64,000 nucleotides of DNA from a virus: positions 11,547 through 75,546 of IMG/VR virus record IMGVR_UViG_3300014720_000030. The stretch is one strand, 5' to 3'. Positions 1,092 through 43,943 of the stretch are shown here, one piece after another. The position numbers were made by a program, and so were the translations under genes. Numbering within the stretch: position 1 is the first letter of the stretch; each line of letters opens with the position of its first letter. The notes beneath the pieces were generated by a model. It had not been told where the DNA came from. It worked only from the letters and a program-made list of their open reading frames with translations, and did no database searches.

Positions 1092-3566
1092 TTATGCTCC
1101 TCCCGGGAAAGCTGCACCTGTTGCTTGAATATTAAAATCCAACACAATAAATTCAGCCGTACGAGTTGGTTGCAAAAAGATTTGTCCGTAAAGGATATTT
1201 TGATCAATTAAATCCGGGGTATTATTTGTTTGATCCATAATAACTCGGAATGCATATAATCCTTGACGAGCTTTTACTCCTTCCATATACGGATTCACAA
1301 TGTTTAAGAATCTGCTTCTTGTAGCTGTGGTGTTTTGTTCAAATACCAAAAATCTAGTTGAAGATGCAATAAACTTTTTAAGTTCGATTAGCAAACGACG
1401 AACATTGATTCGATCTAATGCACTTGGACGAGCTTGCAATGTCTTTTGACCAAATACCACTTTTCCTTGCACTGAGAAGTTTGCAATCGGATTAACTCGT
1501 GCTGCATACAATGTATCGCGATCTGCTTGAGTCAATTGCTTATATGTATTGTTTACGCCAATTAATCCGCCCCTAGTTAAACCAGCCGGTGCATACCATG
1601 GAGCCGCAGTTCTATCATTTTGTGCTAATACTCCTGCAATTCTTACTGAAGGTGGTACATACCAATCTCCCCCTTCGTAATTTTTAGAAACGCCTAACCA
1701 TGGCCAATATGTTGCAGTATAATTGCTATCTAAACCAGTTACTTGATTAACAACTGTTGCTATATTATCTGTTATTGCATTTGAATCCATAATATAAAAA
1801 GTGTCTTGTCGATTACTTGCCAATGTTCTTGCAGCTGATGTTACATTGGAATGCAAACTGTCAATGATTCCTGGTGTAACTAACATGTTCATATCATAGT
1901 AGTCTGTATTACTTAGCAAAGAGAATGCTTTGTTGTATGCAACTGTACCAGTACTGGTTGAAGTTGAACAATCAAATCCAAAACTGTTTGTAGCAGTAAT
2001 GTATTCTCCTGAATATTTTTTCTGATTTGGTTTTGCTCCATCAAATCCGCCTTGGAATGGTACAACAAAATTTCTTGTATCTAATTTAACATTGCTAGCA
2101 ATTGATCCTGATACTAATGCTGCCTCAATTGATCCGGTATAATATGCACTTGCAAGTCCCGGAGGAAAAGCAGCTATCGTAGCTTGTGCAACATTTCCTA
2201 AATAAAAGTCTGCATTGCTACCTGTATTAGAACCAGATGTTGGAATTGGTGCTAAATAATTAATATTATCTGGATTTGCTGCGCTAAAATCAAAATTAAA
2301 TCCGAAACATGTTGTTAATGCAGTTTGCGTAGTTTGATATGATGCTGATGGAAACAAGAAGCTTCCAGATAATGTTGCAATTGGTGAATTCAATGCACGG
2401 AATCCGAATGGTACATATGTTTTTGAATATGTTTTATTTGAAACACCTTTATCAACTTCTACCCGTACAAATTTTGATAAGTTAGGATAATCACCTGTTA
2501 TTACCAATTCATTTGCATTGTTAATACTTTGATAACGATCACCAATTTTCTTTACAATATAATTTGGAGATGCTGGATTCAAATTACAGTTTTGAAATAT
2601 TTCTACAACATCACGTAAACTGTCAGTGTCATTAGAAGAATATGGAGAACCTAATGCAGCAAGTTGTGTTTGATTTACTCGTCGCAATTCTACCGTAAAT
2701 GAACCATAGCCATCGGGATCACCAGTTTCTGTAGAAGTTCGTATATCGCGAATACCAACCTTAATTTCATAATTTACAGATGTTCCATGAGACAATGTAT
2801 GGAATCTAAACAAATCGTTGGTTACGGATCCGGCTTTTTGTGAAGTAATCCATGGAGTTGATGCAATGTTATAATCTTGCAAATATTCATGATTACTAAT
2901 GATTTGCATTGACATTGTAACTTTAGTAATATCTGCAAATAATGATGTTACTGTTTTGTTTTCATACTGAACATATACTGGATATTGATTTGAATTTGGT
3001 GATTTTCCAAAAACGGTTGTAATGTAATCATTTGCCGATGTTACAATCGATGCTGAAATGTTTGCAGTTTTTGCAAATGCTCCAGAAAATCCAATAGCCG
3101 AATCGGCACCATATGCATATGAACCAGATAGTGTTAATGCAAATCTGCCGTTAGTATCAGCATTTAATATTGATGTTTGAAATACATTGGTTGCTCCGTC
3201 GGTTGTAACGGGACGTGTTGGATGTAATATATGTGTTGCATATTTTACAGATGCAGACTCAGCACAAATTGCTAATGCTCCATTTGTTAACTTATATCCA
3301 TCTTCATATAATAAACGTGTTACTGTAATTACATTTCCACCTTTACTTAAATAATCATCAACAACGTGTGGCACATATGAATTTGGAGTAAAACTTCCAA
3401 ATATTGCCGTAAAGTCGTTCATTGATGAAATTTGCGTAGGGACTAGTGCAGGGCCTTTTACTGTTGGTCCTATCACAGCGGCACCTATTTGTGCAATTGC
3501 ACCTGGTAAAAACGATTGATCAATCTCTTTTGTAAATACCCCAGGTGATACTATTCTTTCTGCCAT
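1092..3566 (-). CDS. gp18: Contractile tail sheath protein (T4 gp18-like)
   Basis: N-terminal SPGVFTKEID; C-terminal PWYAPAGLTRG, FGQKTLQ, ALDRINVRRL, FEQN, PTRTAEFIVLDF. Confidence 0.95.
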   Translation of the reverse strand: MAERIVSPGVFTKEIDQSFLPGAIAQIGAAVIGPTVKGPALVPTQISSMNDFTAIFGSFTPNSYVPHVVDDYLSKGGNVITVTRLLYEDGYKLTNGALAICAESASVKYATHILHPTRPVTTDGATNVFQTSILNADTNGRFALTLSGSYAYGADSAIGFSGAFAKTANISASIVTSANDYITTVFGKSPNSNQYPVYVQYENKTVTSLFADITKVTMSMQIISNHEYLQDYNIASTPWITSQKAGSVTNDLFRFHTLSHGTSVNYEIKVGIRDIRTSTETGDPDGYGSFTVELRRVNQTQLAALGSPYSSNDTDSLRDVVEIFQNCNLNPASPNYIVKKIGDRYQSINNANELVITGDYPNLSKFVRVEVDKGVSNKTYSKTYVPFGFRALNSPIATLSGSFLFPSASYQTTQTALTTCFGFNFDFSAANPDNINYLAPIPTSGSNTGSNADFYLGNVAQATIAAFPPGLASAYYTGSIEAALVSGSIASNVKLDTRNFVVPFQGGFDGAKPNQKKYSGEYITATNSFGFDCSTSTSTGTVAYNKAFSLLSNTDYYDMNMLVTPGIIDSLHSNVTSAARTLASNRQDTFYIMDSNAITDNIATVVNQVTGLDSNYTATYWPWLGVSKNYEGGDWYVPPSVRIAGVLAQNDRTAAPWYAPAGLTRGGLIGVNNTYKQLTQADRDTLYAARVNPIANFSVQGKVVFGQKTLQARPSALDRINVRRLLIELKKFIASSTRFLVFEQNTTATRSRFLNIVNPYMEGVKARQGLYAFRVIMDQTNNTPDLIDQNILYGQIFLQPTRTAEFIVLDFNIQATGAAFPGGA

Positions 3567-3587
3567 TTAAACTCCTATGATTTTCTT

Positions 3588-3595
3588 ATAAATAT
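3588..3595 (-). promoter_or_regulatory. Putative late promoter ATATTTAT (sheath)
   Basis: Octamer upstream of AGGAG and ATG. Confidence 0.7.
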
Positions 3596-3614
3596 AAACA
3601 TCATTTGCCAAACC

Positions 3615-3884: not shown

Positions 3885-3901
3885 AATAACCTTTTCTTGA
3901 T

Positions 3902-3930
3902 ATTATAAAGAATTTATATCAATTATCCAA
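3902..3930 (-). promoter_or_regulatory. Sigma70-like promoter TTGGAT-N17-TATAAT
   Basis: Exact 17-nt spacing; same motif recurs elsewhere in the window. Confidence 0.7.
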
Positions 3931-4170: not shown

Positions 4171-4179
4171 ATTACATCC

Positions 4180-5535
4180 TTATAATTCAATCCATTCATT
4201 GGATGGTCTAAATTTCATTATCCATTCATCTCCTCCTCCACCACCATTATTCCAATAGCAGTGTCCTACAATTCTAACATATCCTGATGCAGGTACGGTT
4301 GTGTCCATTGTGGTTCCAGAACCTGACTTGATATATATTGGAAGGCCATAATCTGCATTATCGACTATAGGATACGGTGATCCAACAGAAACTACTACAT
4401 CACCTTCTATTATAACAGAACCAGTTTGTGAAAATATGTTTTTAGCTATTCCTAGCATTTTTGTTGAAGAGTCTGTAGTCTGATCTACTTGATACCATTG
4501 ACCGTCTGTGTTTAAATAAACCAAATCATTATCAACAACATTTGCATCAAAATACGACTCCCCTAGAATTTGTCCAGCATTATTGTTGTTTGCAAACAAA
4601 TTGACTCGTGTAGCTTCCCCAACGTATTGTTGATTGTACAAAAATGTTTCATATGTTCCCGAAAAACCGTTCCAATCCAATGCAGTTACACCAGTTATGT
4701 CTAATAATCCTCTATTTCCGAAATCTATACTAGCGCTAGCACCCTGGAATGGTGATCCATATAATTTGCGTTCATAATTTATATCATCTACTTTGATAGC
4801 ATCATATGGACCCATGTCGGGAATAAATGGTGGAGAACCTGGAATTAAATCTCCTCGTACAATGAATGACCCAGATTCTATAATTACACCTGATTGCCAA
4901 TTAAGTACTGGGTATTCACTACTGTTTTTAAGTTGTCGGGTACCCCAATCTATAGAAGTTCTAATTCCAGTAGAATCGACAGTCCATCGATTCTGCCAAT
5001 CGATTGAGGTTTTAGCGCTAGTATCAATCGCAATTCGGTCTTGCCAATTAACAGAAAGACTAGAACCAGTGTCTCGCAATAGTCCTGCATTCCAATTGAC
5101 TGTAAAATCGCCTGGACCATTATCAAACTTAAGCAATCGATTATTCCAATCAACAGATTGTGATGCATTTGCATCATACATGCTTCGTAAAACGTCCCAA
5201 CGCACCGAAAAATTTCCATTGGAATCAAACAATGTTCTGCTATCCCAATTCACAGAATCTTCCGTGCTGCCTGGTATAGGACCAGATCCAATCAATATTT
5301 TATTGGTACCATCGATACTGTCTAACACACTGAATGATCCAGTTACTCCTAATGAACCTGTAATCTCTGCACTTCCGGTGTATGGAAATGCAGGTGTACT
5401 TGGAGCATACGAAGCAGATAATGCTTGTGTTGCGTATGAAGCAGTACCTAATAAACTTCCAGTTATGCTTGGAGCATACAATGAATTTAACGTGGCATCA
5501 GAGCCAGACGTTATGATCTTTTTCCATGATGGCAT
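4180..5535 (-). CDS. Tail fibre/virion appendage protein with S(V/I)(N/D)W repeats
   Basis: MPSWKK start, TGS/SAS-rich shaft, about 8 imperfect 15-17 aa repeats SVNWxxRxLxD. Confidence 0.65.
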   Translation of the reverse strand: MPSWKKIITSGSDATLNSLYAPSITGSLLGTASYATQALSASYAPSTPAFPYTGSAEITGSLGVTGSFSVLDSIDGTNKILIGSGPIPGSTEDSVNWDSRTLFDSNGNFSVRWDVLRSMYDANASQSVDWNNRLLKFDNGPGDFTVNWNAGLLRDTGSSLSVNWQDRIAIDTSAKTSIDWQNRWTVDSTGIRTSIDWGTRQLKNSSEYPVLNWQSGVIIESGSFIVRGDLIPGSPPFIPDMGPYDAIKVDDINYERKLYGSPFQGASASIDFGNRGLLDITGVTALDWNGFSGTYETFLYNQQYVGEATRVNLFANNNNAGQILGESYFDANVVDNDLVYLNTDGQWYQVDQTTDSSTKMLGIAKNIFSQTGSVIIEGDVVVSVGSPYPIVDNADYGLPIYIKSGSGTTMDTTVPASGYVRIVGHCYWNNGGGGGDEWIMKFRPSNEWIEL

Positions 5536-5612: not shown

Positions 5613-5618
5613 TTTATA

Positions 5619-5809: not shown

Positions 5810-6640
5810 TTAAGAATAAATGTAAATATCTCCACTCAATGTATCAACATGAATTGTACCATGGCCATTGCCTGAGCCACCGTATATTGGTGCTGGAGAT
5901 GGTGCAGCTGTGCTTGTTTCTACTGCTCCTGCATATACCGACGGTACAAATGAATTGCCCGTGGCATCGAATGATGAAGTAAATCCCCATCGCGTAGTAC
6001 CAGAATCATATCCATACAATTCACCAATATTTTGAGTACCTTGTTGTACAACAATACCACCATCTCCTGCAGTATTAGATCCAGATGCAAACAATACAAA
6101 CCGATCTGCAACAAGCAAGTTTGCAGTGTTTTGAAATGATGCAGTACCTAATACAACCAAATCGCCTGTCAATGTTAATCCAACAAACGACGGTGAATCT
6201 GTTGTTTCTAATCCTAAATCGATTGTCGACCCAGCTACGCCATTTGTTGTTAATAAAGCCTGACCCTGTCCTGGGCTAGATAACACTGATGCAGATACTA
6301 CTGTACTACCTGCTAATATTTGTGTTTGAGTTACGCTACCACCTAATGATGTTGCATTACCTGCAATTGTTATAGATGAATTTGCTAAACTACCATTTGG
6401 AATGCTACCTAATGTAAATGTAATTGTATCTGAACCGGCATTTCCTGAAATATCTAATCCGGCGCCAGATGCAGATGCAAATGTTAATGTATCTACTGCA
6501 CTATCTGCTAATACATTCGTACCGTTAATGGACATCGTAACAAATGAATTTTGTGCAGTTACTGATGTTAAATATCCAGCATCATTATTTAATTGGGAAA
6601 TATTACTTCCCGATACTACTACTTTTTTCCAAGTTGCCAT
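5810..6640 (-). CDS. Tail fibre-like virion protein
   Basis: MATWKKVVVSGS start, Gly/Ser/Thr-rich beta-type sequence; late promoter at 6661-6668. Confidence 0.65.
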   Translation of the reverse strand: MATWKKVVVSGSNISQLNNDAGYLTSVTAQNSFVTMSINGTNVLADSAVDTLTFASASGAGLDISGNAGSDTITFTLGSIPNGSLANSSITIAGNATSLGGSVTQTQILAGSTVVSASVLSSPGQGQALLTTNGVAGSTIDLGLETTDSPSFVGLTLTGDLVVLGTASFQNTANLLVADRFVLFASGSNTAGDGGIVVQQGTQNIGELYGYDSGTTRWGFTSSFDATGNSFVPSVYAGAVETSTAAPSPAPIYGGSGNGHGTIHVDTLSGDIYIYS

Positions 6641-6673: not shown

Positions 6674-7003
6674 TCAATCTAAACCTACAAAAAAAGATGC
6701 AGATGTAAAATATAATGCACCATTAGGTGCTGTTCCTGCAGGATCTAAACTTTGTGTTGCTACTACTATAGTGCCACTTTGTGATACTGTTAATACGGGT
6801 TGATTATTAAAGTTTTTAATTAAAAATATATCATTAACATCACTTTTAATTTCTAAAGAGCCTGTAATTACAGCACTACCTGAAAACGGAAACAACGATC
6901 CGCCGCCGCCGTTAAGTGCAAATGAAGCTGTCACTGCATAACTTGAAGATATATTATACAACGAACCGGTTTGTAATTGCCCGGGTCTAAACTGCCGTGC
7001 CAT
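6674..7003 (-). CDS. Short fibre-like virion protein
   Basis: Likely start MARQFRPGQLQTGS behind GGGAGGTG SD; TGS/SGS/SAS-rich. Confidence 0.6.
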   Translation of the reverse strand: MARQFRPGQLQTGSLYNISSSYAVTASFALNGGGGSLFPFSGSAVITGSLEIKSDVNDIFLIKNFNNQPVLTVSQSGTIVVATQSLDPAGTAPNGALYFTSASFFVGLD

Positions 7004-8226
7004 TAAGCCCACCTCCCTTTAACTACAACAACATCTTGTGCAGTTAATGTATATCCTAACGTTGCAGTATTGAATATGATTGTTTGTGCGGCAACGTCGC
7101 TAGGTGTCCACGTATATACTATTTTATCAATATATTGACCGTTAATAAATACATCAAATTCATTTTTGCTAGCAACTGTAGTCGTAACTGGATTAATTGC
7201 AGCAAATGCTGATATGCTTACGGTAGTTCCAGAAACATAGGTTGCAATTTGTTCTGTAATGTTTGTTAGGTAATTCATTGCTTGTGCATTGATGCTAACA
7301 TTAACACCTCCGCCGGATATAATTGCAGTGCCGCCACTCATTATATTAGTTTGCAGTTGTAACAACTGAGTTGGAATTTCTAATGTTTCAAATATGTTGT
7401 TATCAACATCAACAACTTGATCGAATGTTACTTTCTTTATAGAATACATTTTTTTAATAGTTGACATTCGAACTTCTTGTTCTGATAACAATGTTCCTAA
7501 AACAGACAATGGTATTGTTGCACGGACTAATCTATCCTCTCCAATCGTATTTACCGTTTCAAATGATATTGATCCAATAGTTGTAGGAAATTTATTTGCA
7601 TCATTTCCCCAAGAAAACCGACCATATGGTAAAATTTGATCAACTAATTCGTTCATTTGAGTGGTAAAATCACACCACAACATCATATCATATTCTACAG
7701 TAACATATTTTGGTATATCAATAATATAAAATTGTTCTGATGGTTGCGGATTATTTTTTGGAATTGGAAACAATTCATCTTCATATCTATTTCTAGAATT
7801 ATATTTACTTCGATGTACTATGTAGTTTGCTGCATTAGGTCTATTCACATCCAATGTTTTTTGTGCATCTCTTTCTCCTACGGAATTACGTTTTAGCATA
7901 ATTAATGGAGATTGCAACATGCCCTTTTCATCACGTAAATAGCCTAATCTGCGGACATTATCCCATTTTTCTCCGTTTGAAAATATTACTGGGACTGGTA
8001 TTAATTCTTTATTTGCAGTTACTTGTGGTTGAATTTCATTTTCAATATACCATTTAATTGCAAAATCAATATCGTAAATTGTACGTTGTTTTGTTCGTAC
8101 AACATCATCATCTCGACGAGTTTGCATTGCTCTATTTAACAATAGATCAGGAGTTATTCCTTCCGTTCTTTGCGGATTTGGGTTGTTTGTTTTTCTATCA
8201 ATATCCTGTCTATTTAATCTAGGCAT
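7003..8226 (-). CDS. Tail completion/sheath terminator protein (T4 gp15-like)
   Basis: DIDFAI, VPVIFSNGEKW, PLIMLKR motifs; follows neck genes as in T4 13-14-15. Confidence 0.6.
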   Translation of the reverse strand: MPRLNRQDIDRKTNNPNPQRTEGITPDLLLNRAMQTRRDDDVVRTKQRTIYDIDFAIKWYIENEIQPQVTANKELIPVPVIFSNGEKWDNVRRLGYLRDEKGMLQSPLIMLKRNSVGERDAQKTLDVNRPNAANYIVHRSKYNSRNRYEDELFPIPKNNPQPSEQFYIIDIPKYVTVEYDMMLWCDFTTQMNELVDQILPYGRFSWGNDANKFPTTIGSISFETVNTIGEDRLVRATIPLSVLGTLLSEQEVRMSTIKKMYSIKKVTFDQVVDVDNNIFETLEIPTQLLQLQTNIMSGGTAIISGGGVNVSINAQAMNYLTNITEQIATYVSGTTVSISAFAAINPVTTTVASKNEFDVFINGQYIDKIVYTWTPSDVAAQTIIFNTATLGYTLTAQDVVVVKGRWA

Positions 8227-8753: not shown

Positions 8754-9980
8754 TTATGCAACATATATTTTTAATGGAATCTTTGCTTGCATTTCTAATA
8801 ACTGTGTTGCTTCTGCATTTTGACGCGTCATCATTTGTTCCCGAGTCATTTTTTCTAAAAATTCTCGAAGCTGTGTTATCAACGCCTCTTTTTCCGTTTG
8901 TCCTTGCGATGTTAAATCAGCACCATTCATTGTCACTTCGCCATTTGGAATAGGAATACTACTATATTTGTTTCGTACATAACCTAACATTTCTTTTGTC
9001 AAAGCCAATGCATATCTAAATATCCACGCACGCCCCATATCATTAATTCTGCTGTATGTTTGGTATTTATATGGTATATTTGATGCGTCCGTAATAACAC
9101 CTCGCATAAGTGCTGTATTGCCAAATAAGACGCCTTCATTTGTTTTTGCTTCTTCAAAAATAACATCAACCAATACTTTATCAAAAAATGGGGTTGCTGA
9201 TGAAGATCCGGTTGGTCGTACTGGCACTGGCCAAAATTTTATATCATCTCCATGTATTTCAAATGAATATTGCGACTTACGTATTTGATCATTAAATTCA
9301 ATTGATTGTAGTCTCATTAAATCTGCATGAATCGGCATCATCATAAATGATACGGATGGAGAAAATCCTCCAAAATCAAATGAATCAAGTAATTGTTGAG
9401 ACCCTAAACCAGTTCCAACAAATGGATCAAAATATCGTACGATTGCCGGAGGTGCATTATGTATCACTCGTTTAATTTCTACGGAACTAGTTGTTAGTAT
9501 AATACCTAATGATTTAGATACTGCAGTTTTTATACTATATGTTTGTTTGCCCGGTTCTATATCAAATGTTATTCTGGTCCATGGTTGATGCCCTCCGCTA
9601 TCTGCTTCAGTACCATATGTTTTTGATAATTTAGATATATATCCAAATGAATTTCCAACTAATGCATCAGTAAAACTATTATTAGTTAAAAAACTAGATC
9701 CAGTTTGAACGCCGAGAGTATTTAATAAATTGTTAGAAATATTTACTTGATTTACTTGATTTGAATATTCTACAACTGCCGCTTCAAATGCAGTATAAAA
9801 ATTTACTGCTACCAATTCGACATCTAATATAGGATAGCCTAATGTTTGTGCTGCCATTTTTGCAAATTTATCTGCATGTTGCGCAAACGTAGCATCTGTG
9901 TCAAAAAATCCAAATGGAGTACTACCAGTATTAAACGAAGAACTTCCAGGCCATATGGGCCTATTTTCTGAATAATCCAT
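8754..9980 (-). CDS. Neck/head-tail adaptor (T4 gp13-like)
   Basis: LGYPILDVEL, WIFRYALALTKEMLGYVRNKY, PNGEVTMNG; late promoter 9997-10004 and AAGGAG SD. Confidence 0.8.
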   Translation of the reverse strand: MDYSENRPIWPGSSSFNTGSTPFGFFDTDATFAQHADKFAKMAAQTLGYPILDVELVAVNFYTAFEAAVVEYSNQVNQVNISNNLLNTLGVQTGSSFLTNNSFTDALVGNSFGYISKLSKTYGTEADSGGHQPWTRITFDIEPGKQTYSIKTAVSKSLGIILTTSSVEIKRVIHNAPPAIVRYFDPFVGTGLGSQQLLDSFDFGGFSPSVSFMMMPIHADLMRLQSIEFNDQIRKSQYSFEIHGDDIKFWPVPVRPTGSSSATPFFDKVLVDVIFEEAKTNEGVLFGNTALMRGVITDASNIPYKYQTYSRINDMGRAWIFRYALALTKEMLGYVRNKYSSIPIPNGEVTMNGADLTSQGQTEKEALITQLREFLEKMTREQMMTRQNAEATQLLEMQAKIPLKIYVA

Positions 9981-10003: not shown

Positions 10004-10669
10004 TCAATACGTTTCGTTTAGGAGTTTTAAAATTTCATTTAATGATTCATGTCTATGATTGTCTAATAATATGATTTCATTAACGTATTTTGATTTGGTT
10101 AATTTAGGTACTTCATGCACTGCAGAATCATTTCCAAATTTTAAGTCTATTTGATATCGATCGCCTGTAAGTATCATGATGCTTTCTTTTCCTAAACGAG
10201 ATACAACCATTTGAAGTTGTTGTTTAGTTAAGTTTTGAAATTCATCTACAATACAAATTGCATGATCAAACGTACGGCCTCGAAAGTGTGCTAAAGAAAC
10301 TAATTCAATTTGTTCTTCTCGTTCCATTTTATCTAAAATATCTGGTTTATTATATACTTTACGCATATTGCTACGCAAAGGAACTAACCATGGATCCATT
10401 TTTTCTGCTAATGACCCGGGAAGAAATCCGTTATCTTCATTTGATACAGTTGGCCTTGTTATAATAATTTTGTTGATTTGTCTTTTAAAAAACATATCTA
10501 ATGCAACTTGTACTGCTAACAAAGTTTTACCAGAACCCGCTTTACCTAAAATAAAATTAAAAGGCGTTTGCAATATTTTTGATTTTGCTTGTTTTTGTTC
10601 TTCTGACAATGTAATTGAAAATTTAACATCAGTTTTTGGTGGAGTTTTTTCTCGATTTTGTGTAGACAT
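10004..10669 (-). CDS. phoH: PhoH-family ATPase
   Basis: GKAGSGKT Walker A, ITRP, GFLPG, RGRTF, DEFQN, GDxxQIDL. Confidence 0.92.
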   Translation of the reverse strand: MSTQNREKTPPKTDVKFSITLSEEQKQAKSKILQTPFNFILGKAGSGKTLLAVQVALDMFFKRQINKIIITRPTVSNEDNGFLPGSLAEKMDPWLVPLRSNMRKVYNKPDILDKMEREEQIELVSLAHFRGRTFDHAICIVDEFQNLTKQQLQMVVSRLGKESIMILTGDRYQIDLKFGNDSAVHEVPKLTKSKYVNEIILLDNHRHESLNEILKLLNETY

Positions 10670-11060: not shown

Positions 11061-12707
11061 TTAAAGCGTGTTAAGACCGTGTACGTATACTTTTCCGTAG
11101 AATTCTGGACGAACTACTTGCTTCGCGTAACGTGTCATGACACCTTTACGCGGAGTGAAGTTCACCGGATCATATACAAGCGGAGTCATAATTAATGGAA
11201 TATAAGGAGCAAATACAGCACCTGTTTCAAGGAACTGAGAACCTCTGAAGCCCATCAAAATTACGTTCTCTAACATGTATGGATTTTTGTATACAGTATA
11301 ACGGTTATTGATTGAACCAATTTTTTGAACGCCAGCAGCAAATTCCATTTTAGTTCCATCAGTGTCGGCAGCAAATCCTGGGATAGACTCAAGGATAGTT
11401 GCAACTGCAGGAGATGTTACTAAGAAGTTAGCACCACCACGCAATGTTTTCTGATGAATTTTATTAGATACTTTTTGCAGTTTAGTACCCAAAGTTTGGA
11501 ACCAACCACCTTGAGTGCTATAGAATCCATCACCTAAATTTTGGTTAGCTGTACCAGCAGCAAGAGTTTGGAAAGCTGAACCGTCCCATATGGTGTTGTT
11601 TCGAGCTGACCAAAATTCAGTGGTTGGAGCTGCGGCAATCAACATATCAAGGATCTCAAGATCGATTTCCATTGATACATACTCAGAAAGCATTGAAGTC
11701 AATTCAGCTTCAGCATCAATTGAGTGGTATGCGTTCAAGTCTTGAGCAAATTCAGGTGTCCATACAGCCTTTAACTTACGTGTTTTAGCAACAATTGGGT
11801 TAGACTGCATTTCAAGATTGATTTCTGGAATATCGATATCAGTATTGTATCCGTTTCCGTAAGCACCTTTATTGTCTTCAAAATCACCTCTAGTAATATC
11901 GGTAGGCTGTTTGCTATAATTCAAACCAAAGTTACCCGCATTAATTGCTAATTGAAGTGCAGTTGCTTGAGTTGTTGTTACAACAAATGATGCAGTGTAA
12001 TTGCTGTTAATTGTTGAAAATGCTTGTACTGGGGCAATTTCTGTACTAGCTGATCCAGAACGAAATGTCCATGAACGAACTGCATATAAATCTGCATTCG
12101 TAGGAACGTTGATTGTCAACATTTTGTATGAAGCTGAACCAGAATAAGTTGAATCTCCATTTACTTGAGCAGTGGTTGGTGTTGAACCAGTAGCTGCAGT
12201 TACAAGTGAAGATGTTTCGTTAATTGAATAACCAAAACGTCCTGCACCATAAAGACCTCCGCTTGGATCACCAGTTGTAGTAGTAACACCAAACATTGAG
12301 TCATCTGCATTAGGAGAACCAAATGGATCACCTGTTCTGTTGTTGTTGTCGTCATCGAATCCTGGCTGAGCTGTACCATATTTAAAGTCTAGATAAAATA
12401 TAAGACCTGATGGCAAGTTCATTGGCTGAACTGAAACGAATTCTTTTGCAGCAAATTCAGCAAAGATACGTCGTACCAATGGAAGTGCTACACCTGCCCA
12501 CTCTTCAGATCCTTGTGCGGTACCTGTTTGTGAAGCTTCTTTTACTAATTGACGAGCTTGGTTCTCAAGTAACTGAGACATACCAGCACGTTCGGTCTCA
12601 CCACGAAGACCTTCTAATAGACCTGTTCTTTCCCACTTTGCAGCTAAAGCTTTTGCATTGTTTCGTTGAACAAAGTCATTTGTTTGAAGTAAGTTTGAAA
12701 TACTCAT
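11061..12707 (-). CDS. gp23: Major capsid protein (T4 gp23-like)
   Basis: KWERTGLLEGL, VSVQPMNLPSGLIFYL, AKTRKLKAVWTPEFAQDL, APYIPL, GVMTRY. Confidence 0.96.
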   Translation of the reverse strand: MSISNLLQTNDFVQRNNAKALAAKWERTGLLEGLRGETERAGMSQLLENQARQLVKEASQTGTAQGSEEWAGVALPLVRRIFAEFAAKEFVSVQPMNLPSGLIFYLDFKYGTAQPGFDDDNNNRTGDPFGSPNADDSMFGVTTTTGDPSGGLYGAGRFGYSINETSSLVTAATGSTPTTAQVNGDSTYSGSASYKMLTINVPTNADLYAVRSWTFRSGSASTEIAPVQAFSTINSNYTASFVVTTTQATALQLAINAGNFGLNYSKQPTDITRGDFEDNKGAYGNGYNTDIDIPEINLEMQSNPIVAKTRKLKAVWTPEFAQDLNAYHSIDAEAELTSMLSEYVSMEIDLEILDMLIAAAPTTEFWSARNNTIWDGSAFQTLAAGTANQNLGDGFYSTQGGWFQTLGTKLQKVSNKIHQKTLRGGANFLVTSPAVATILESIPGFAADTDGTKMEFAAGVQKIGSINNRYTVYKNPYMLENVILMGFRGSQFLETGAVFAPYIPLIMTPLVYDPVNFTPRKGVMTRYAKQVVRPEFYGKVYVHGLNTL

Positions 12708-27647: not shown

Positions 27648-27673
27648 TGTGCAAAATATCTTTAATATAAATA

Positions 27674-34771: not shown

Positions 34772-36352
34772 TTATCCTTTAACCGTTATGTTTTTATCTA
34801 AATCTAAACGAATTAAAAAATTCATATCAACATCACTACGTTTACGTACTGGCTGAGCTAATTTACCAATAGCTAACAATTCGCCAGAGCCATTATATAA
34901 ACCTATAGTTGTTATATATGGTGCAAACGTTTCCGTTGAAACAAATGATTGGTATGTTGCATCATCATCAGCTGTTAATGTAACATTGGTTGACATATTA
35001 AAATCGTCAGCATCTAATCTAGTTATAACACCCAATTCATGAATTGTTACGGTGCTACGATATGATGCAGTATATGGTGTATTAATTATATTGTTAATGC
35101 GATAATCTGCAGAAGAAAAAACAATAATTCCATGTTTAGAAAATACATTACCTACATACGGAGTTTGTAATGCAGTTCCACCTTCCGTACGGTTAGATAA
35201 CGCACTTATCTGCGAAGCGGTAAGTGACTTGTTAAAGATTCTTATTTCATCTAAATAACCTTGTAGATTCAAACTATTGGGGCTAAATCCGCCGATTTTT
35301 AACGTATCTCGATTATCAATTCTAGCAGATGCAGATAATGGGGATGTAGGAATCGTAAATAATGGAGTAGTAGTAGATGATTGCAAAGTACCATTTACAT
35401 ACATTTGCATACTGCTACCTGATTTTTGACAAACTACATGGGTCCAACTCGATGTTACAACGGTTGACGATGTAATAAAAGCTTTAAACCTATCACTACC
35501 TGCAGTTGTAAAAATCAATTGATTGCTACCACTTAATTCTATTCGAAACGGATATGTAGGTGTAGTGCTTCGAGATGCTTTTGTTGCAATCAATTGATTG
35601 GCAGATGTTGAATTTGTACCACTAATAAAAAACGAAACTGCATAATCATGATCTCGGTCATATAAACCTGTTAATGTAGATTCAATATAACCAGAACCAG
35701 AAAAATATGCTGCTAACCCTAAAGCACGTTGTTGCCCGGTTGTTGTTGTAATACCAGGTACATACGTTACGCCTGCAGATGTATATGTAATTCTAGATGT
35801 ATCAAAATATTCATTAAATCCTTCATACCACATTACATTTGTTACGATTGATGCAGTATTAAATGCCGAATCTATAATATTGCCATACCGATCACTAGAA
35901 AATGAACCAGATACAGAAGATGTAAATGAAAATGATGTAGGTTTTATGCCTTCGCCTATTCGCACTTGAGGAATAGACAGTATTGATGCAGTTTGATATA
36001 ATGCTTTTTTAGTTCGAGTTAAATCAGTAGGACCATATGTTTTTGCAGGTTCTGATTTATTTTTATAATATAAATGATTTACAGAAAAATACGTAACGCT
36101 TTGCAAACTGCCGTCAATGTTTGCAGCATCATTGTATGTTAATTCACTTCCTAATGCAGGTAAAACATTAACATCAGAATATATTCCTTGCAAAGGCAAT
36201 GCACTTGAAGTTACACTACCCGAATAAAACGTCCAAGATTTATATGATTGAAATGCATTGATTGTAACATCGGAGCTATCAATTTTTTTAAAAACTGATG
36301 GATATACGCCTACGTATGAATCTTCTGTTTGACTTGTTTTTAATTGTGCCAT
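34772..36352 (-). CDS. LamG/ConA-domain baseplate or fibre protein
   Basis: WTHVV, MYVNG, GYLDEIRIFNKSLT; C-terminal YITTIGLYN..ELLAIGKL. Confidence 0.75.
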   Translation of the reverse strand: MAQLKTSQTEDSYVGVYPSVFKKIDSSDVTINAFQSYKSWTFYSGSVTSSALPLQGIYSDVNVLPALGSELTYNDAANIDGSLQSVTYFSVNHLYYKNKSEPAKTYGPTDLTRTKKALYQTASILSIPQVRIGEGIKPTSFSFTSSVSGSFSSDRYGNIIDSAFNTASIVTNVMWYEGFNEYFDTSRITYTSAGVTYVPGITTTTGQQRALGLAAYFSGSGYIESTLTGLYDRDHDYAVSFFISGTNSTSANQLIATKASRSTTPTYPFRIELSGSNQLIFTTAGSDRFKAFITSSTVVTSSWTHVVCQKSGSSMQMYVNGTLQSSTTTPLFTIPTSPLSASARIDNRDTLKIGGFSPNSLNLQGYLDEIRIFNKSLTASQISALSNRTEGGTALQTPYVGNVFSKHGIIVFSSADYRINNIINTPYTASYRSTVTIHELGVITRLDADDFNMSTNVTLTADDDATYQSFVSTETFAPYITTIGLYNGSGELLAIGKLAQPVRKRSDVDMNFLIRLDLDKNITVKG

Positions 36353-36412: not shown

Positions 36413-37723
36413 TTAGAAATCTAGTTTAACTCGTATAAGAGCTTCTCGCTGAAATGATTTCAATAGTGGTTTAGACAGTTTTGCTACCGCTAATAATTCT
36501 TGACTATCATTATATAATCCAACCGTTGTAATATATGTTTTAGGATCGCCTATAAAAGTTGATTGTGCAATTTGACCAACACTGCCAGATACATATGACG
36601 GATTATTTGAAAAATTATATTCTGCATTTTTAATTCTTACAAAATAATGCGTACTTGTTACTTTTTCAGAATTACGTGCAATAAATCCATATGGATCGGC
36701 TGTTGCAGGATCTGTAAATACCGCAGACCCGGAAATGGAATGATATAATACGAAATGATTATTTCCTTCCGAACTAGAACCAGTATTAGTTGCAAAACCT
36801 AATTTTTGATCAAGCATTTTACCATCTAAAATCAAAGTACCATAATCTGGATATGCTAACCCGTAATATACCGGAGCGGTTGAATTATAAACTCCCGAAT
36901 TAATTGAACCAGAAACAATGTTATAAACTTTACCCGATTGACCAATAGCAGCAGATGCAATCGAAGAATCATCAATAAGTTGAATTACACTCGATGTTGC
37001 ATGCATAGTTACAGAACCGGTTGCATTTGTTGCTCGTGTTGCAACTGACTGTAATGGAATTTCCCAATTTCCTGGATCTAAACGTTCTTTCATTCGATTA
37101 CGTTTAAAGTTAACAACATATATATAGTCTGTACTTCCGGATCCGGCCGTTGTAAAACGTGTATCAGTTGGAGCAAGTAAAAGTTGTCGATATTGTGAGT
37201 AAACTGCTTTACTTGGAGAATCGTTAAGTTGTCCTTGAGAATCAGATCCACTACCTAATGCATGGCCAAATGCTAAAGCAAACTGTACAGCAGCACCGTC
37301 TGCACTAGGAGTTGATTGATATACATCAGCATAATACCGTCGTTGCGTTGTAGTTTGACCCGATGCAGTAAAATATGTAGTTAAATTAGCTAAATTATCA
37401 CTCCATAAACCTGCAGTAACCGTTTCAATTTGATTTGCAACAACATCATTTATCGGATCAAACTTTGTATAGGTTCTACCATTACGAGCTAAAATTTGTG
37501 CTTGATCGCGTTCTGCTACAATTTGATTTGCCAACTGTTGTGCTAATTGTCGTACTTGATCATTAATTATAGAATCCGTACCAGCAGTAGTTGCATTAGC
37601 TGTCATCGATTCTTGCGCCGGCGAAAACGATTGTTGCTCCCTTGATATAATAGGTACTCCGCCTATTCTAGGTTGTTGTTTTAATCGTGTAATGAATTCA
37701 TTCATTTTCATAATATTTTCCAT
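36413..37723 (-). CDS. Baseplate/tail structural protein
   Basis: C-terminal YITTVGLYND..ELLAVAKLSKP shared with 34772..36352. Confidence 0.7.
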   Translation of the reverse strand: MENIMKMNEFITRLKQQPRIGGVPIISREQQSFSPAQESMTANATTAGTDSIINDQVRQLAQQLANQIVAERDQAQILARNGRTYTKFDPINDVVANQIETVTAGLWSDNLANLTTYFTASGQTTTQRRYYADVYQSTPSADGAAVQFALAFGHALGSGSDSQGQLNDSPSKAVYSQYRQLLLAPTDTRFTTAGSGSTDYIYVVNFKRNRMKERLDPGNWEIPLQSVATRATNATGSVTMHATSSVIQLIDDSSIASAAIGQSGKVYNIVSGSINSGVYNSTAPVYYGLAYPDYGTLILDGKMLDQKLGFATNTGSSSEGNNHFVLYHSISGSAVFTDPATADPYGFIARNSEKVTSTHYFVRIKNAEYNFSNNPSYVSGSVGQIAQSTFIGDPKTYITTVGLYNDSQELLAVAKLSKPLLKSFQREALIRVKLDF

Positions 37724-38417: not shown

Positions 38418-41400
38418 CTATACTAAAACAAAACTACCTTGTTCACCATTGTTTTGATAAATTAATTGATTTGGATTTGCCGTTCTCCACTCTACAACAG
38501 GTCCGCCATCTACGGTTTGAGTTGAATTGATATTAAAATCAGGCGAAGTAAGTTTTGCACCAGCATACCGTTGATTTTCAATACCTTGTGGTAAATAATC
38601 TTGAAACTCGGCAAAACTTCCGGTAAACTTTTTACTTAATGTTAAAGCATATGAACTAGAGCCATATGTACCAGTACCGTAAAACCCAATTACGCCCGAA
38701 GATGTTATTGCAGTTGCATCAATCAATTTAAATTCTGAATATGTGCTTGTAATATAAATTGGAGCCGTTCCTTCGCTGAGCCAATATGGTGTTGATGCTG
38801 TAATATAAGTACTACCAGACCGTACTAAATATTGATGCGAATACGTAACACCATCATATTTATCAGCAGTTGATGCAGTCAAATATATTTGCCATTGATC
38901 ATCATCTTCGGCTGTAAGTGATAATATTGCTCCATCAATTGCACCTAAATATTGTAAATAATCTCCCGATGTTGTTGGCGCTGTGTCTACAATTGTAGTT
39001 GTAAATGAACTATCATATCGTTCTATTTTTGGAAGAATTGAATCTTTGCTACGTTCAAAAATGTTTGGCTGAATCATGATGCCTGTTAATTTATCAGTTC
39101 GCGCCGGTAACAATTGTTCTAATTGCCGGAAAAATGATAAATCAAACATTGTAAACATGGAAATATATGCATTGATATCATTTTTATTTTGATATTTTTT
39201 CCAATATGATTGTGCTGCTTGAATTAATTTAGGATATGATTTTGAATCAGTTTCGCCCGGATCACCAATGTATTGATCTAATTCTGCAAATCCTAGTTGT
39301 GCAATTATATCTTCATCAATCATGGTCTGCGGAGAAAAATAAACACCTAATTTTTTGCTATCTAACGGTGCAGTATCAAACTGACTACGTTCTGCTCTAG
39401 TTTTTATATCTAATGAGCCAACTAATCGATTTGATTCAATTCTAATTTTATTATCATCAAGTGTACCAACTCCTATCGATGGCGCATCATAATAATACGT
39501 TTCTTCATATGAATCATATGGGGTGTTTATAGACCAACCCGCAAATGATGCAGATATTGTAGATGACTTAGGTTGCACTCCAGTTAAGCTACCCGTTAAT
39601 GCATGATTGATTTTTTGTGTTAATGGCAATCTAAATACCAATTCATCATATGCATCTATATTTGCATTATATGCTCCCGGAGCTTTAACGTGATTATTAA
39701 ATGCATTATCATTTAATGATGATGACCAAAATCTTAATTCTTGTAATTGACCAACAAATCTACTAGCACCTGCAGAAGTTCCGCCTAATGTAAGTGTACT
39801 CGATCCAGCAAATGATGCAGTAGCTGAAGCTGATACTGCAGCTACAACTTTGCCATATTTAGATTTTTTTGTAATTAAATCTAAATTAGTACCATTTGTT
39901 CGCAATACGGTAGAAACCCATTCGTCATTGTATAATTCAATTAATCCCGAAGATGTGCCATTAATTTTCATGACACCCTTGTTACCACTATTAAACTCCA
40001 TTGTAACCGCATTAGCACCTATGTTAAACAGGTTCATAGTAGTTGGTATCAAAGGATTAGTTGCAATATTATCTGGTCTAAAACGAAGTTCAACCGCGTT
40101 AATTGACTGCGAATAATTTACAGTAACCGTTCCTGCTGCATTGCCACTTAAATCTAATGCATAATCAAAATTGTATTTTTCATATACAGGAGCTCGATCT
40201 AATCTTGGTCCACCATATTCGTTGATACTTATAAATGATTGTGGAATTCCGTAACATGCAAGTAGTGCTTGTACGCTGCGTTTAGTTCCTTTTGATTTTA
40301 ATAATAATGGCAAGTTATTAACAATCCTACGCCATATAGCATATGTTATATTTTGTCCAGAAACTGACGGATCTCCAACGGTATTTGATCCAGTTAACGG
40401 AACTCCAGCTTCTGATGTTCCCAGTACATACTGCCATAATTCTTGCGATTGATTTCCATTAGTTAAATTCCATCCGAATTGTTTTGCAACTGAATATAAT
40501 AATTCATTAGGCATACCCAATTTAGGATTCTCTTCTCGTTTATTAACTAATGATATATTACGGATATATGTATGCAATATATCAAAATGTTGACCTAACA
40601 TATGAGTAAATGTAATCAAATCAACATTTGCCGAATCATTTCGTATAAATTCTGGTATAACATAGTATAAAGAATTTATATTTTCAACATCATAAAATGA
40701 AGCTGAATCGTATAGTCCGTTATACCAATTATTGAATATACTACTAGTAGTTGAAACTAATGCGTATGGTTTTGTTGCATTTAATTTTGGTACTGGACTA
40801 ACATAGCTACCAGTTAATCTACTAACATTAGCTAATTCTAATGGCAATGTATACGTAGTTAATTTTGATGATGATTCATAGTATAGAAATTTTTCAAAAT
40901 CATCAAATCCACTAATTAATGAAGTTTTTAAATTAAAAAAGTCTTGTGAATTAGTAGTAGCAACACTGCCAGATAATGATGCTACTGCTGAACTTTGACT
41001 AGTATATTGTTCTAATAGTTGTAATTTATATTTAAAGTTTTCTAAACGTTCTGTTGCAGAACTATAAAAAACAAAGTTATTGAAGTCCGAATAATCAATA
41101 TTTAATTTAACTCCAGATAAACTTCCTGAAAAATATGCATCTACAATTTGTTGCGATGTTTGAACCGATGAACCTAATATATCTGTCCAAGTTCTATAAT
41201 CAGTTCCTGCTGAAGTTTGTTGTGGAGAAAATGCTTGCCAATTTGGTCCAGCTAAAGAATTAAATTGTTTTTTATTAACCTTAGGTTGAATTGCAACTCG
41301 GTCAATATATGTAGGTTTTTGTTCTTCTACAACCCAACACTTAAAATCTACTGCAATATCTTGCGATAATGGGTCATGAAGTTTAACGTATAGATATTCC

Positions 41401-41990
41401 CCAATTACTACACTATTAACAAATAATGCGCAGTTATTTCTACTAAAATTTAATAGATATGGTTTATAATACTGTTGTGTTGTTTGATTTACAGTTTGAA
41501 TATAATTGGTAATCTGCTGTAAAAATTCTAGGTCGGTATCATCAATTGCACGAAGCCGTATCTCGGTACGATCTGGAGATATTTCATCTATTCGTAGATG
41601 CTGTCGCTCATAACTACCAATTAAATTTTTAAAGAAATTAAATGCAATACGGAAATTGCCTGCCGTTAATTTTAATTTTTCAAACTCAGAATATAAATCA
41701 ATACCAATTGCAGTATTAATTGGTATTATTGCATTAGTAGCTTTGTCTTTAAATTCAGGTATTTTTGTTTGAAATTGAATTTTATGATTTCCTGTTAACC
41801 AAGTATCATTAGAATATACATGAAATTCAATTCGATTATCATCGGACACATTAATAATATCCGTATTTAGATATACTGGCTCTACAAGATCATATGCTGC
41901 AAATTCAGATTTAGTTCGAACAATACGTTCACCAGAAACGGATTGTATTGCCGATTTAATTTGTTCTATATTTTTATACTGGGTTAACAT
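38418..41990 (-). CDS. Large baseplate wedge-like protein with LamG-like domain
   Basis: LLKSKGTKRSV (gp7/P2 gpI-like motif), FVGQLQELRFW; in baseplate cluster. Confidence 0.65.
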   Translation of the reverse strand: MLTQYKNIEQIKSAIQSVSGERIVRTKSEFAAYDLVEPVYLNTDIINVSDDNRIEFHVYSNDTWLTGNHKIQFQTKIPEFKDKATNAIIPINTAIGIDLYSEFEKLKLTAGNFRIAFNFFKNLIGSYERQHLRIDEISPDRTEIRLRAIDDTDLEFLQQITNYIQTVNQTTQQYYKPYLLNFSRNNCALFVNSVVIGEYLYVKLHDPLSQDIAVDFKCWVVEEQKPTYIDRVAIQPKVNKKQFNSLAGPNWQAFSPQQTSAGTDYRTWTDILGSSVQTSQQIVDAYFSGSLSGVKLNIDYSDFNNFVFYSSATERLENFKYKLQLLEQYTSQSSAVASLSGSVATTNSQDFFNLKTSLISGFDDFEKFLYYESSSKLTTYTLPLELANVSRLTGSYVSPVPKLNATKPYALVSTTSSIFNNWYNGLYDSASFYDVENINSLYYVIPEFIRNDSANVDLITFTHMLGQHFDILHTYIRNISLVNKREENPKLGMPNELLYSVAKQFGWNLTNGNQSQELWQYVLGTSEAGVPLTGSNTVGDPSVSGQNITYAIWRRIVNNLPLLLKSKGTKRSVQALLACYGIPQSFISINEYGGPRLDRAPVYEKYNFDYALDLSGNAAGTVTVNYSQSINAVELRFRPDNIATNPLIPTTMNLFNIGANAVTMEFNSGNKGVMKINGTSSGLIELYNDEWVSTVLRTNGTNLDLITKKSKYGKVVAAVSASATASFAGSSTLTLGGTSAGASRFVGQLQELRFWSSSLNDNAFNNHVKAPGAYNANIDAYDELVFRLPLTQKINHALTGSLTGVQPKSSTISASFAGWSINTPYDSYEETYYYDAPSIGVGTLDDNKIRIESNRLVGSLDIKTRAERSQFDTAPLDSKKLGVYFSPQTMIDEDIIAQLGFAELDQYIGDPGETDSKSYPKLIQAAQSYWKKYQNKNDINAYISMFTMFDLSFFRQLEQLLPARTDKLTGIMIQPNIFERSKDSILPKIERYDSSFTTTIVDTAPTTSGDYLQYLGAIDGAILSLTAEDDDQWQIYLTASTADKYDGVTYSHQYLVRSGSTYITASTPYWLSEGTAPIYITSTYSEFKLIDATAITSSGVIGFYGTGTYGSSSYALTLSKKFTGSFAEFQDYLPQGIENQRYAGAKLTSPDFNINSTQTVDGGPVVEWRTANPNQLIYQNNGEQGSFVLV

Positions 41991-42828
41991 TTAACTCCTG
42001 ATTCCAAAGATCTACATTTTTATTTGCATCTGTAATAACCCAATATGACTGTAATGCATTTATTGTGTGAAATTGCGTATCATTATTTTGTCCGGCTTTC
42101 GCTCCGATGCTAAAGCTATCTCCAATTTCAAATTCTGAATTAGGAATAACGATGTCAACTTCTAAATCTTGAACTTCATATTGATTTATAGATCCTGGCG
42201 TATTAGGTACAAATGTTGAAGTATTTTCAAATGTACGATATTCCCTATCTAAGCCTTGTTCGCTTGCTTTAATTATAGAAAAATACGCAGTACCATGGCC
42301 AGACGGTGCATCATATCGATGTTGCAATTTGATTCTAAATCGAAGATCGACGTCTAAATTTTTAATTTCTTTTGAAATTGTATATCTGTTTGTATATTGT
42401 TGCGATAATCCATCTTGTACATCATCCATTAAAATACCAGAATAATCTGTACCTTCTAAAATTAGTCTGTTTTCACTTGGACGATATCTTGCAAACACCG
42501 GATCTGGTAATGCTAGATCTACATTTAAATCTAAATCAAGTGACGCATTATCAAATTTAATACTAACAGGGAAACTATAGTAAGTAAACTGAGTATCTAT
42601 TACTTTAAGTATAGATGCATTAGTAATTCTTTGTGTAGTTGGTTCTATAATCAATAATTGGTTTTTTTCTATACCCTCCTGTAAATTTATATTACCATTT
42701 TCATCTCGAATTACAACAGAATTATTATTAGAAAGTTTAGTTAAACCATCACGTTGATATTCCGTTTGACGTTTAGCCGCAAAATCGTCTAATTTTGATA
42801 ACGCAGATGTATTTAATTGTATATTCAT
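41974..42828 (-). CDS. Hypothetical baseplate-region protein
   Basis: ORF track, overlapping operon context. Confidence 0.65.
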   Translation of the reverse strand: MNIQLNTSALSKLDDFAAKRQTEYQRDGLTKLSNNNSVVIRDENGNINLQEGIEKNQLLIIEPTTQRITNASILKVIDTQFTYYSFPVSIKFDNASLDLDLNVDLALPDPVFARYRPSENRLILEGTDYSGILMDDVQDGLSQQYTNRYTISKEIKNLDVDLRFRIKLQHRYDAPSGHGTAYFSIIKASEQGLDREYRTFENTSTFVPNTPGSINQYEVQDLEVDIVIPNSEFEIGDSFSIGAKAGQNNDTQFHTINALQSYWVITDANKNVDLWNQELNVNPV

Positions 42829-43943
42829 TATCTAGTTACTTTGAAATATATTTGATCATCTATATATTGTTCTGTAAATCCATCTACTAATTTTAAATTT
42901 ATTCGATAATAACGCTCTGGCATTAAACCGTTCATATCCATGTAAATAAAATTACTAGTACTATCACAACTTACTTTAGTATAAATATTATCGTAAGGAA
43001 TTATGACTTCATCTGTAGCTGCATCAGAAACTGAATAATATGATGATGTTGGCAGAAATTTTACGGTTTGAATTGGAAATAAATTTGTTGCAGATTTTTG
43101 CGGATATTTATCTCGTGCGTAAATTCGTATTTTTGAAATTTCTGTGTCTTTATAAGTTGGTTTAATCTTTGTATATACCTCATACGAATCTAAATTAACG
43201 GATGTTAATGATCCGGTTGTAAACGTAGTATTATTAAAATACATTGTTAGTTTAGGCACATAAATTGTATGAGTTTCTCTACTAAAAAATCTTACATAGC
43301 CAGCAACATTATTATTTGTTTCATCTGCATCCGAAAATTGAAGCAAAAATCCGTAATTCGGAATTGATATTCCGTTGCTGCCACTTAACCAAATTTTAAC
43401 TGCATCAGTTACATCGAGATTTAAATCACTTGTACGATAAGAAAATGATTCAGATGCAATTAATGATAATGTATTTCCTGAACCAGAATAATACAAATAA
43501 TTTCCTCCTGCCCCTGACCCAGAAATATACAAACTACTAGAATTAATATTGACGTATTGACTACCCGATATCCATGTAGATCCAGATGCCGATCCAGACC
43601 ACGTTGCACCATCAATATTTAATGCAGCTAAATATCCTGTACCATTAACCCAATCTTGACCCAACATCTTTGCGTTAATGATATAATCAGACGGCAAATT
43701 TTTTGCATGAGATGTATATAAATTTAATATGAATTTACAATCATTAACCGTTTTAGAATATTTTGATAATGATGCTGAAATTTCAGTCATATCAAATTTG
43801 ACAATACTTCTAGATTTTAATAACGTATCACCTTGTGCATCTAAACGTTTTCCTACTTCTAGTATTTCATCTAGTCCTGTATTATAATCAGGGTACCGTT
43901 CATACAACGTTGTGTCTTTTGATGCATAAAATATTCTAAACAT
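42828..43943 (-). CDS. Baseplate-region beta-sandwich protein (DNRLRE-like)
   Basis: KDTTLY, SRSIVKFD, NYGFLL, FFSRET, PKL motifs. Confidence 0.55.
   Translation of the reverse strand: MFRIFYASKDTTLYERYPDYNTGLDEILEVGKRLDAQGDTLLKSRSIVKFDMTEISASLSKYSKTVNDCKFILNLYTSHAKNLPSDYIINAKMLGQDWVNGTGYLAALNIDGATWSGSASGSTWISGSQYVNINSSSLYISGSGAGGNYLYYSGSGNTLSLIASESFSYRTSDLNLDVTDAVKIWLSGSNGISIPNYGFLLQFSDADETNNNVAGYVRFFSRETHTIYVPKLTMYFNNTTFTTGSLTSVNLDSYEVYTKIKPTYKDTEISKIRIYARDKYPQKSATNLFPIQTVKFLPTSSYYSVSDAATDEVIIPYDNIYTKVSCDSTSNFIYMDMNGLMPERYYRINLKLVDGFTEQYIDDQIYFKVTR

Follow-up and report, generated by a model that had tools for sequence, protein, structure and literature searches.

Why does one short amino acid pattern, a Ser or Thr and a small residue followed by a Ser, recur in so many virion proteins of a single phage? 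The question is raised by a 64-kb window (the whole stretch of DNA that was analysed, 64,000 nucleotides), which covers positions 11547-75546 of the IMG/VR viral contig IMGVR_UViG_3300014720_000030 (75.5 kb, about 45% complete). A first reading of the sequence alone had noticed the pattern, written [ST]-[GAS]-S, and had proposed it as a phage-specified sequon for modification of the whole virion. In this work we found that the motif is real, that its residue order matters, that it is selected at the protein level and that it is restricted to virion proteins.

Judged by its genes, which lie nearly all on the minus strand, the window carries the virion module of a T4-like myovirus (gp23-type, uncultured) that belongs to the clade of Flavobacterium phage immuto, Microcystis phage Mel-JY01 and Rhodothermus phage RM378. 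Its gp23-type major capsid protein (11061..12707) matches Pfam Gp23 at 4.5e-76 and is 57%, 55% and 39% identical, respectively, to the capsid proteins of these three phages, the nearest cultured ones by this measure. Other genes recognised in the window encode a contractile sheath (1092..3566, sheath domains), a neck protein, a LamG-domain protein and, by a PHROG match, a gp6-like baseplate wedge; the first reading had placed portal, terminase and SbcCD genes there as well. A complete relative with terminal repeats, the 159.6-kb genome G001, is collinear with the whole window and has a collinear orthologue for nearly every window gene.

A Ser-ending tripeptide in virion proteins

The 62 main open reading frames (ORFs) of the window were translated, and 11 carrier proteins, all encoded by minus-strand virion genes between positions 1092 and 43943, were compared with the other 51. 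We counted a strict motif, [ST]-[GA]-S, the loose form [ST][GAS]S and a Thr-ending control, [ST]-[GA]-T. After correction for composition, as originally suggested, the strict motif was about 5-fold over chance in the carriers, with 92 copies versus 18.9 ± 4.2 expected from whole-protein shuffles. Shuffling inside blocks of 10, 20 or 40 residues gave expectations of only 22-24 copies (24 ± 5 for the 10-residue blocks). Permuted versions of the motif were flat in the carriers, the Thr-ending control was at expectation (18 versus 18.3) and S[GA]T was flat as well. For the loose motif, 115 of the 126 copies in the window fell in the 11 carriers. The strict motif occurred 4 times in the other 51 proteins versus 12.4 expected, a deficit that says nothing about avoidance, since T4 is depleted likewise (9 versus 23.8).

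All four Ser-ending tripeptides contributed to the excess (SGS 34 versus 4.9 expected, TGS 24 versus 4.6, SAS 18 versus 4.8, TAS 16 versus 4.5), and their Thr-ending counterparts stayed near chance (SGT 5 versus 4.6, TGT 6 versus 4.2, SAT 4 versus 4.5, TAT 3 versus 4.2). Forms with a middle Ser were enriched only 1.4-2.3 times (TSS 14 versus 6.0, SSS 9 versus 6.4). The motif is therefore [ST]-[GA]-S: the Gly and Ala forms of the pattern as first written stood up, and its middle Ser did not.

The codons used for the motif Ser mirror the bulk Ser codon usage, which indicates selection on the protein and rules out a DNA-level word as the cause. At position 1 the codons are almost exclusively TCN and ACN, as expected if Ser and Thr interchange there. 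Most sites stand alone: 62 of the 92 are more than 12 residues from any other, versus 16.9 expected, and tandem fibre repeats were rejected as the main cause on this ground. A shared homologous domain was rejected too; BLASTP comparison of the carriers found nothing in common beyond two 41-residue matches, one of them free of the motif, in agreement with the original view that the carriers have unrelated folds. Neither a host-type sequon nor an N-glycosylation sequon accounts for the pattern. The Bacteroidota sequon D-(S/T)-(A/I/L/V/M/T), rightly described at the outset as different, is not enriched (27 versus 24.7 in the carriers, 37 versus 44.5 in the other proteins), nor is N-x-S/T in the carriers (73 versus 72.9). 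The surroundings of the motif are hydrophobic or aromatic, position -1 being hydrophobic at 58% of the sites versus 33% in the background and position +1 at 47%; position -2 is also hydrophobic, and charged residues are depleted around the motif.

The carriers are listed below with their counts of the loose motif, followed by expected counts and p values.

1092..3566, minus strand: tail sheath, 824 aa; 9 sites versus 3.4, p = 0.007
4180..5535, minus strand: fibre-like protein, 451 aa, N-terminus MPSWKKIITSGS; 12 sites versus 2.7, p = 0.001
5810..6640, minus strand: fibre-like protein, 276 aa; 6 sites versus 3.6, p = 0.14, alone not significant
6674..7012, minus strand: small fibre-associated protein, 112 aa; 6 sites versus 1.0, p = 0.001
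8754..9980, minus strand: neck protein (gp13 / Ad2-like), 408 aa; 6 sites versus 1.3, p = 0.005
11061..12707, minus strand: gp23-type major capsid protein, 548 aa; 7 sites
24939..27683, minus strand: large virion protein, fold not recognised, 914 aa; 15 sites versus 4.9, p = 0.001
34772..36352, minus strand: LamG / concanavalin-like domain protein, 526 aa; 14 sites versus 4.8, p = 0.002
36413..37723, minus strand: tail or baseplate protein, fold not recognised, 436 aa; 10 sites versus 2.2, p = 0.001
38418..41990, minus strand: large baseplate or fibre protein, 1190 aa; 19 sites versus 4.7, p = 0.001
42828..43943, minus strand: baseplate-proximal protein, fold not recognised, 371 aa; 11 sites versus 2.0, p = 0.001

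Counts of the loose motif were low in the portal (0), terminase (0), tube (0), gp6-like wedge (1) and SbcC (2) proteins. The per-protein counts first made by eye were reproduced exactly from the translated ORFs, and the per-gene counts bear out both the confinement of the motif to virion proteins and the location of the capsid and sheath sites outside the conserved cores. In the capsid protein the same seven sites as first seen (TSS, TGS, SGS, SAS, SGS, SAS and TAS) all fall in the insertion domain, at residues 165-240 (nucleotides about 11990-12215), and none in the conserved core. All 9 sheath sites lie at residues 104-486, before the conserved C-terminal sheath domains (Pfam, residues 550-813). 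The 451-aa fibre-like protein has a run of TGS/TAS/SAS repeats at residues 10-65 and has a 41-residue module in common with the small fibre-associated protein. Orthologues of the 1190-aa protein were found in immuto, Mel-JY01 and LR756508 only, and the G001 orthologue of the 914-aa protein has 10 sites versus 3.1 expected.

A structure model of the capsid protein was poor overall (pLDDT 41) and moderate in the insertion domain (53-78), where it places the motif sites at strand starts or in a hairpin. Domain position together with this one partial model suggests that the sites are exposed.

Conservation of the sites was examined in an alignment of 76 relatives with capsids 73-95% identical. The capsid motif columns map to residues 144-256, with three rare exceptions seen in 1-2 sequences each. 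SGS217 is kept in 71 of the 76 relatives (73 when its SAS and TGS variants are counted), TGS173 in 58 and TAS238 in 56; the remaining sites are gained and lost, and SAS and SGS swap freely. Across the 11 orthologue pairs of the window and G001, the motif Ser is conserved in 82% of cases versus 65% for other Ser residues (odds ratio 2.5, p = 4e-6), and position 1 stays Ser or Thr in 90%.

Motif excess and glycosyltransferase genes in relatives

The strict motif and the Thr-ending control were then counted in relatives and outgroups, and each was scored for a glycosyltransferase (GT) of the GT4 family, GT499, described below. Values are observed versus expected, for the motif first and for the control second.

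G001, whole genome: GT499 present; 154 versus 68; control 89 versus 71
immuto, whole genome: GT499 present; 177 versus 85; control not compared
RM378, whole genome: GT499 present; 81 versus 36; control 33 versus 30
Mel-JY01, baseplate region: GT499 present, split in 2 ORFs; 75 versus 18; control 16 versus 12
G007, virion regions: GT499 present; 105 versus 47 and 46 versus 19; control 32 versus 42 and 19 versus 15
G006, virion region: GT499 present; 67 versus 30; control 32 versus 31
LR756508, 93 kb: GT499 present, intact, 438 aa; 43 versus 30; control 29 versus 19
T4, structural regions: GT499 absent; 21 versus 35; control 37 versus 34
Cyanophage Syn30: no full-length GT499 match; 26 versus 19; control 34 versus 27
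Campylobacter phage CPX: no full-length GT499 match; 12 versus 7; control 7 versus 6
Vibrio phage pv27: no full-length GT499 match; 12 versus 12; control 22 versus 10
LR756511, 100 kb, capsid 39% identical over 67% of its length: GT499 absent; 23 versus 22; control 24 versus 23

The motif excess and the GT499 family are co-distributed. The co-occurrence with glycosyltransferases foreseen in the original prediction holds for the six relatives with an excess (G001, G006, G007, immuto, Mel-JY01 and RM378), all of which carry GT499, and falters in LR756508, where the enzyme accompanies a weak excess. T4, Syn30, CPX, pv27 and LR756511 show no excess of the motif. The enriched proteins of G001 are the orthologues of the window carriers, and the flanks of the RM378 motifs resemble those in the window. 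Recoding of stop codons was considered behind the weak or absent signal in LR756508 and LR756511, and there was no sign of it; the TGA in the GT match of LR756508 is a natural stop.

The candidate enzymes were found in a 13-kb glycosylation island of G001 (23.5-36.4 kb; L089 3584-16377). It contains three GT2 genes, a TOD1-like transferase, NeuB, a CMP-sugar cytidylyltransferase, epimerases and two adjacent GT4 genes coding for proteins of 417 aa (GT417) and 499 aa (GT499). The same GT4 pair occurs in immuto (NC_055915, 49172-59988), beside WecE-type aminotransferases, a methyltransferase and an acetyltransferase. The arrangement looks like a fixed GT4 core next to an exchangeable glycan island, the flanking sugar genes differing between relatives. 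The GT4-like neighbour of 417 aa was found in G001, immuto and Mel-JY01; a weak match in RM378 (N-terminal similarity, E = 0.001) suggests that this phage probably has one too.

Among 50,697 phage records, full-length relatives of GT499 were found in immuto, Mel-JY01, LR756508 and RM378 only, the same set as that with the closest capsids, and weak matches to the C-terminus alone in S-CBS4 and S-EIVl. A search with a profile of the family matched RM378, Mel-JY01 (two ORFs) and LR756508, and gave no match in T4 or LR756511. In Mel-JY01 (PP395634, 83441-84929) the two ORFs code for about 198 and 313 aa, the break falling roughly between the GT-B halves. Every complete relative checked has glycosyltransferases. 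Metagenomes contain at least 8,000 homologues of GT499, of which the best 120 listed are 77-98% identical. The hosts of the clade span three phyla, and this breadth, together with the conservation of GT499, argues for a substrate intrinsic to the phage. An independent phage lineage with GT499 was sought through the distant representatives P0211 and P0236, and none was found; P0211 pointed to G006 and G007, which belong to the capsid clade already described (capsids 58-63% identical), and P0236 gave no result.

The structure model of GT499 is confident (pLDDT 94.8). Its best solved match is B736L, by sequence (E = 7e-9, 19% identity) and by fold (Foldseek E = 4.6e-20, TM 0.77 on the target), with generic GT4 enzymes ranking behind.

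An octamer, TATTTATA, is strongly strand-biased in the window, with 18 copies in minus-strand sense and 2 in plus-strand sense, and in G001 (42 to 4). Copies in minus-strand sense stand at window positions 1025, 3587, 6660, 9996, 13835, 14703, 19025, 22903, 36379, 38394 and 46835; the octamer precedes virion genes, among them those for tube, sheath, fibre, neck and portal, by 10-55 nt. The T4 late box TATAAATA is its reverse complement, and the octamer is probably the late promoter of the clade. GT499 is preceded by the same box, at 20 nt in G001 and at about 34 nt in the G007 subclade.

What the motif may be for

The simplest account of an ordered tripeptide that is specific for Ser and kept in many unrelated virion proteins throughout a deep clade is a reader acting in trans. 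As the clade-core GT4 pair is the sole recognisable candidate for it, O-glycosylation is the leading explanation. We therefore regard [ST]-[GA]-S as, most likely among the readings considered, the acceptor sequon of a phage-encoded cytoplasmic O-glycosylation; the case is circumstantial and the proposal tentative. Under it, selection would keep many copies of hydrophobic-[ST]-[GA]-S-hydrophobic in the outer parts of virion proteins. During late infection, when these proteins are made, the soluble GT4 pair GT499 and GT417 would prime the motif Ser with a first sugar. The variable sugar-synthesis genes beside the pair (NeuB, the CMP-transferase and GT2 genes in G001, the WecE-type aminotransferases in immuto) would then complete the glycan, and the surface of the particle would end up coated with sugar. 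Of the original idea of a phage-specified sequon, what has stood is the ordered, selected and virion-confined motif and a GT4 pair in the lineage; the enzyme of LR756508, with its weak excess, does not fit.

Several points weigh against such a sequon. LR756508 combines an intact GT499 homologue with an excess that is weak and, by its control, non-specific. In Mel-JY01 a strong motif excess goes with a homologue split in two ORFs. The positive genomes are all of one clade, and the co-occurrence may thus reflect a single evolutionary event. Lost motif Ser residues change to Thr as often as other Ser residues do between the window and G001. GT4 enzymes can act on DNA or on lipid-linked glycans too. 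The timing evidence for the GT operon is mixed: no late-like box precedes the immuto GT, and in one subclade a sigma70-like promoter takes its place. Furthermore, there is no glycosyltransferase in the window, as first noted, or anywhere in its 75.5-kb contig. This absence may be put down to the contig being a fragment about 45% complete; it corresponds to about 60-136 kb of G001, and the island would therefore lie past its left end.

The hydrophobic flanks and the predicted strand-edge positions would fit an unmodified structural motif equally well. Such a motif would be a strand-edge or hairpin element of beta-rich surface domains and fibres, serving folding, packing or hydration, with two hydroxyls on one face, a small residue opposite and hydrophobic neighbours, and the GT pair would have another purpose, for example DNA or host-surface glycans. 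This is a serious rival, which we consider possible though on the doubtful side. It agrees with the hydrophobic residues at -1, -2 and +1, the depletion of charge, the strand starts and hairpins of the insertion-domain model, the occurrence of some sites in short repeats of the fibres (ITGSLGVTGSF, for example, and runs of SASY), and the GT of LR756508 with little excess beside it; the raised conservation of the motif residues would be shown by any structural element. It has difficulty with the strict Ser at position 3, as Thr, the better strand former, is at expectation there. The carriers also lack detectable homology and most sites are isolated, and T4, a cyanophage, a Campylobacter phage, a Vibrio phage and LR756511 show no such excess in their fibres and surface domains.

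The trans-acting reader might instead have nothing to do with sugars. The motif could signal Ser phosphorylation or acylation, or be bound as an extended hydrophobic-[ST]-[GA]-S strand by a clade-specific chaperone or assembly factor. The evidence for action in trans (clade-wide, many folds, virion-specific) serves this explanation as well as it does a sequon; the motif has no chemical tie to sugars, and the clade encodes GroEL/GroES, along with many core genes that lack annotation. However, neither the window nor the contig showed a candidate kinase or acyltransferase, and the GT pair is the sole recognisable protein-modifying candidate that tracks the motif. We regard a non-sugar reader as unlikely. 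An artefact of a composition rich in Ser, Thr, Gly and Ala, or of fibre repeats of low complexity, to which the richness of the carriers in S, T and G relative to the other window proteins and a few tandem runs might point, is refuted by the shuffles, the flat permuted and Thr-ending controls and the isolated sites, and is extremely improbable.

The proposed O-glycosylation can be compared with known systems. Freeman et al. (2023, in Cell Host Microbe) are said to have described O-glycosylation of mycobacteriophage virions by phage-encoded glycosyltransferases. The likeness lies in transferases of the phage that are proposed to decorate Ser and Thr of its own capsid and tail and so to coat the particle. 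According to two articles that cite this work, the mycobacteriophage glycans sit on extensions at the C-termini of the capsid and tail-tube subunits (PMC12619734, PMC11256854). The candidate sites described here differ in forming an internal tripeptide spread over at least 11 proteins, at residues 165-240 in the capsid and with none in the tube, and the candidate enzymes are a different GT4 pair.

B736L (PDB 3oy2), a putative glycosyltransferase of chlorovirus PBCV NY-2A and part of the transferase set of that virus, is like GT499 a virus-encoded GT-B/GT4 enzyme. Chloroviruses glycosylate their capsid at non-canonical sites with cytoplasmic glycosyltransferases of their own, and these glycans are N-linked. 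The motif here differs in centring on Ser, with N-x-S/T not enriched, and the two enzymes are only 19% identical.

GtfA/GtfB, the O-GlcNAc transferase of serine-rich-repeat adhesins in Gram-positive cocci, is an adjacent pair of GT4-type proteins with lengths of about 500 and 420-450 aa, and GT499 has a GT4-like neighbour. Repeats of the S-A-S type abound in the GtfA/GtfB acceptor, and some fibre stretches of immuto resemble them, whereas the acceptors proposed here are mostly isolated tripeptides in folded domains and not long Ser repeats. Membership of GT499 in this family was not supported, since GtfA (4pqg) aligns with it over 42 residues only, at E = 0.04, and the top-50 Foldseek matches listed do not include it.

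The general O-glycosylation of Bacteroidota, the presumed host phylum, is an O-linked system acting on many proteins through a sequon. It acts outside the cytoplasm, and virions assemble in the cytoplasm. It differs further in that its sequon is not enriched in the carriers and that the motif also occurs in phages of Cyanobacteria and Rhodothermus.

In its widest form, the proposal is that a globally abundant clade of aquatic T4-like phages with hosts in Bacteroidota, Cyanobacteria and Rhodothermus has a cytoplasmic O-glycosylation of its own with the sequon [ST]-[GA]-S. The GT4 pair of the clade core would prime Ser wherever head, sheath, neck, baseplate and fibres are exposed, and exchangeable sugar-synthesis islands would diversify the glycan. 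We think this clade-wide version quite conceivable, if far from assured. A literature search turned up no paper that treats [ST]-[GA]-S or the glycosylation of phages in the immuto / Mel-JY01 / RM378 clade. If the proposal is true, bacterial viruses would have their first defined O-glycosylation sequon, together with a sugar coat over the whole particle. Virion glycosylation would then reach beyond a few actinobacteriophages to a very abundant aquatic T4-like group, and modification sites could be read straight from sequence. The role of the coat, be it a shield against host defences or grazers, adhesion to mucus or particles, or stability, would become testable, as would the evolution of the sugar islands, and so would the use of the GT pair to O-glycosylate recombinant proteins at chosen sites. 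Should the motif be structural, it would still be a clade-specific sequence rule for surface beta domains that current annotation misses. The cultured members immuto, RM378 and Mel-JY01 make testing straightforward.

Further observations on the window and its surroundings

The two fibre-like proteins (4180-5535 and 5810-6640) begin alike, with M-(P/A)-(S/T)-W-K-K-(I/V)-(I/V)-(T/V)-S-G-S, and this shared N-terminal WKK..SGS box is probably a common attachment module. The highest motif densities seen were those of two small G001 proteins, one of 239 aa with 13 sites (17843-18562) and one of 138 aa with 11 sites (117447-117863); the latter has no counterpart at window positions 43943-43952.

A gene for a PhoH-like ATPase (10004-10669) lies inside the head and neck module of the window, and a gene for a UvdE-type UV endonuclease at 52377-53402. 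To the left of the window, at contig positions 1653-3181, a GIY-YIG homing endonuclease gene adjoins a short fragment of a family-A DNA polymerase, which suggests that the polymerase gene has been split or invaded.

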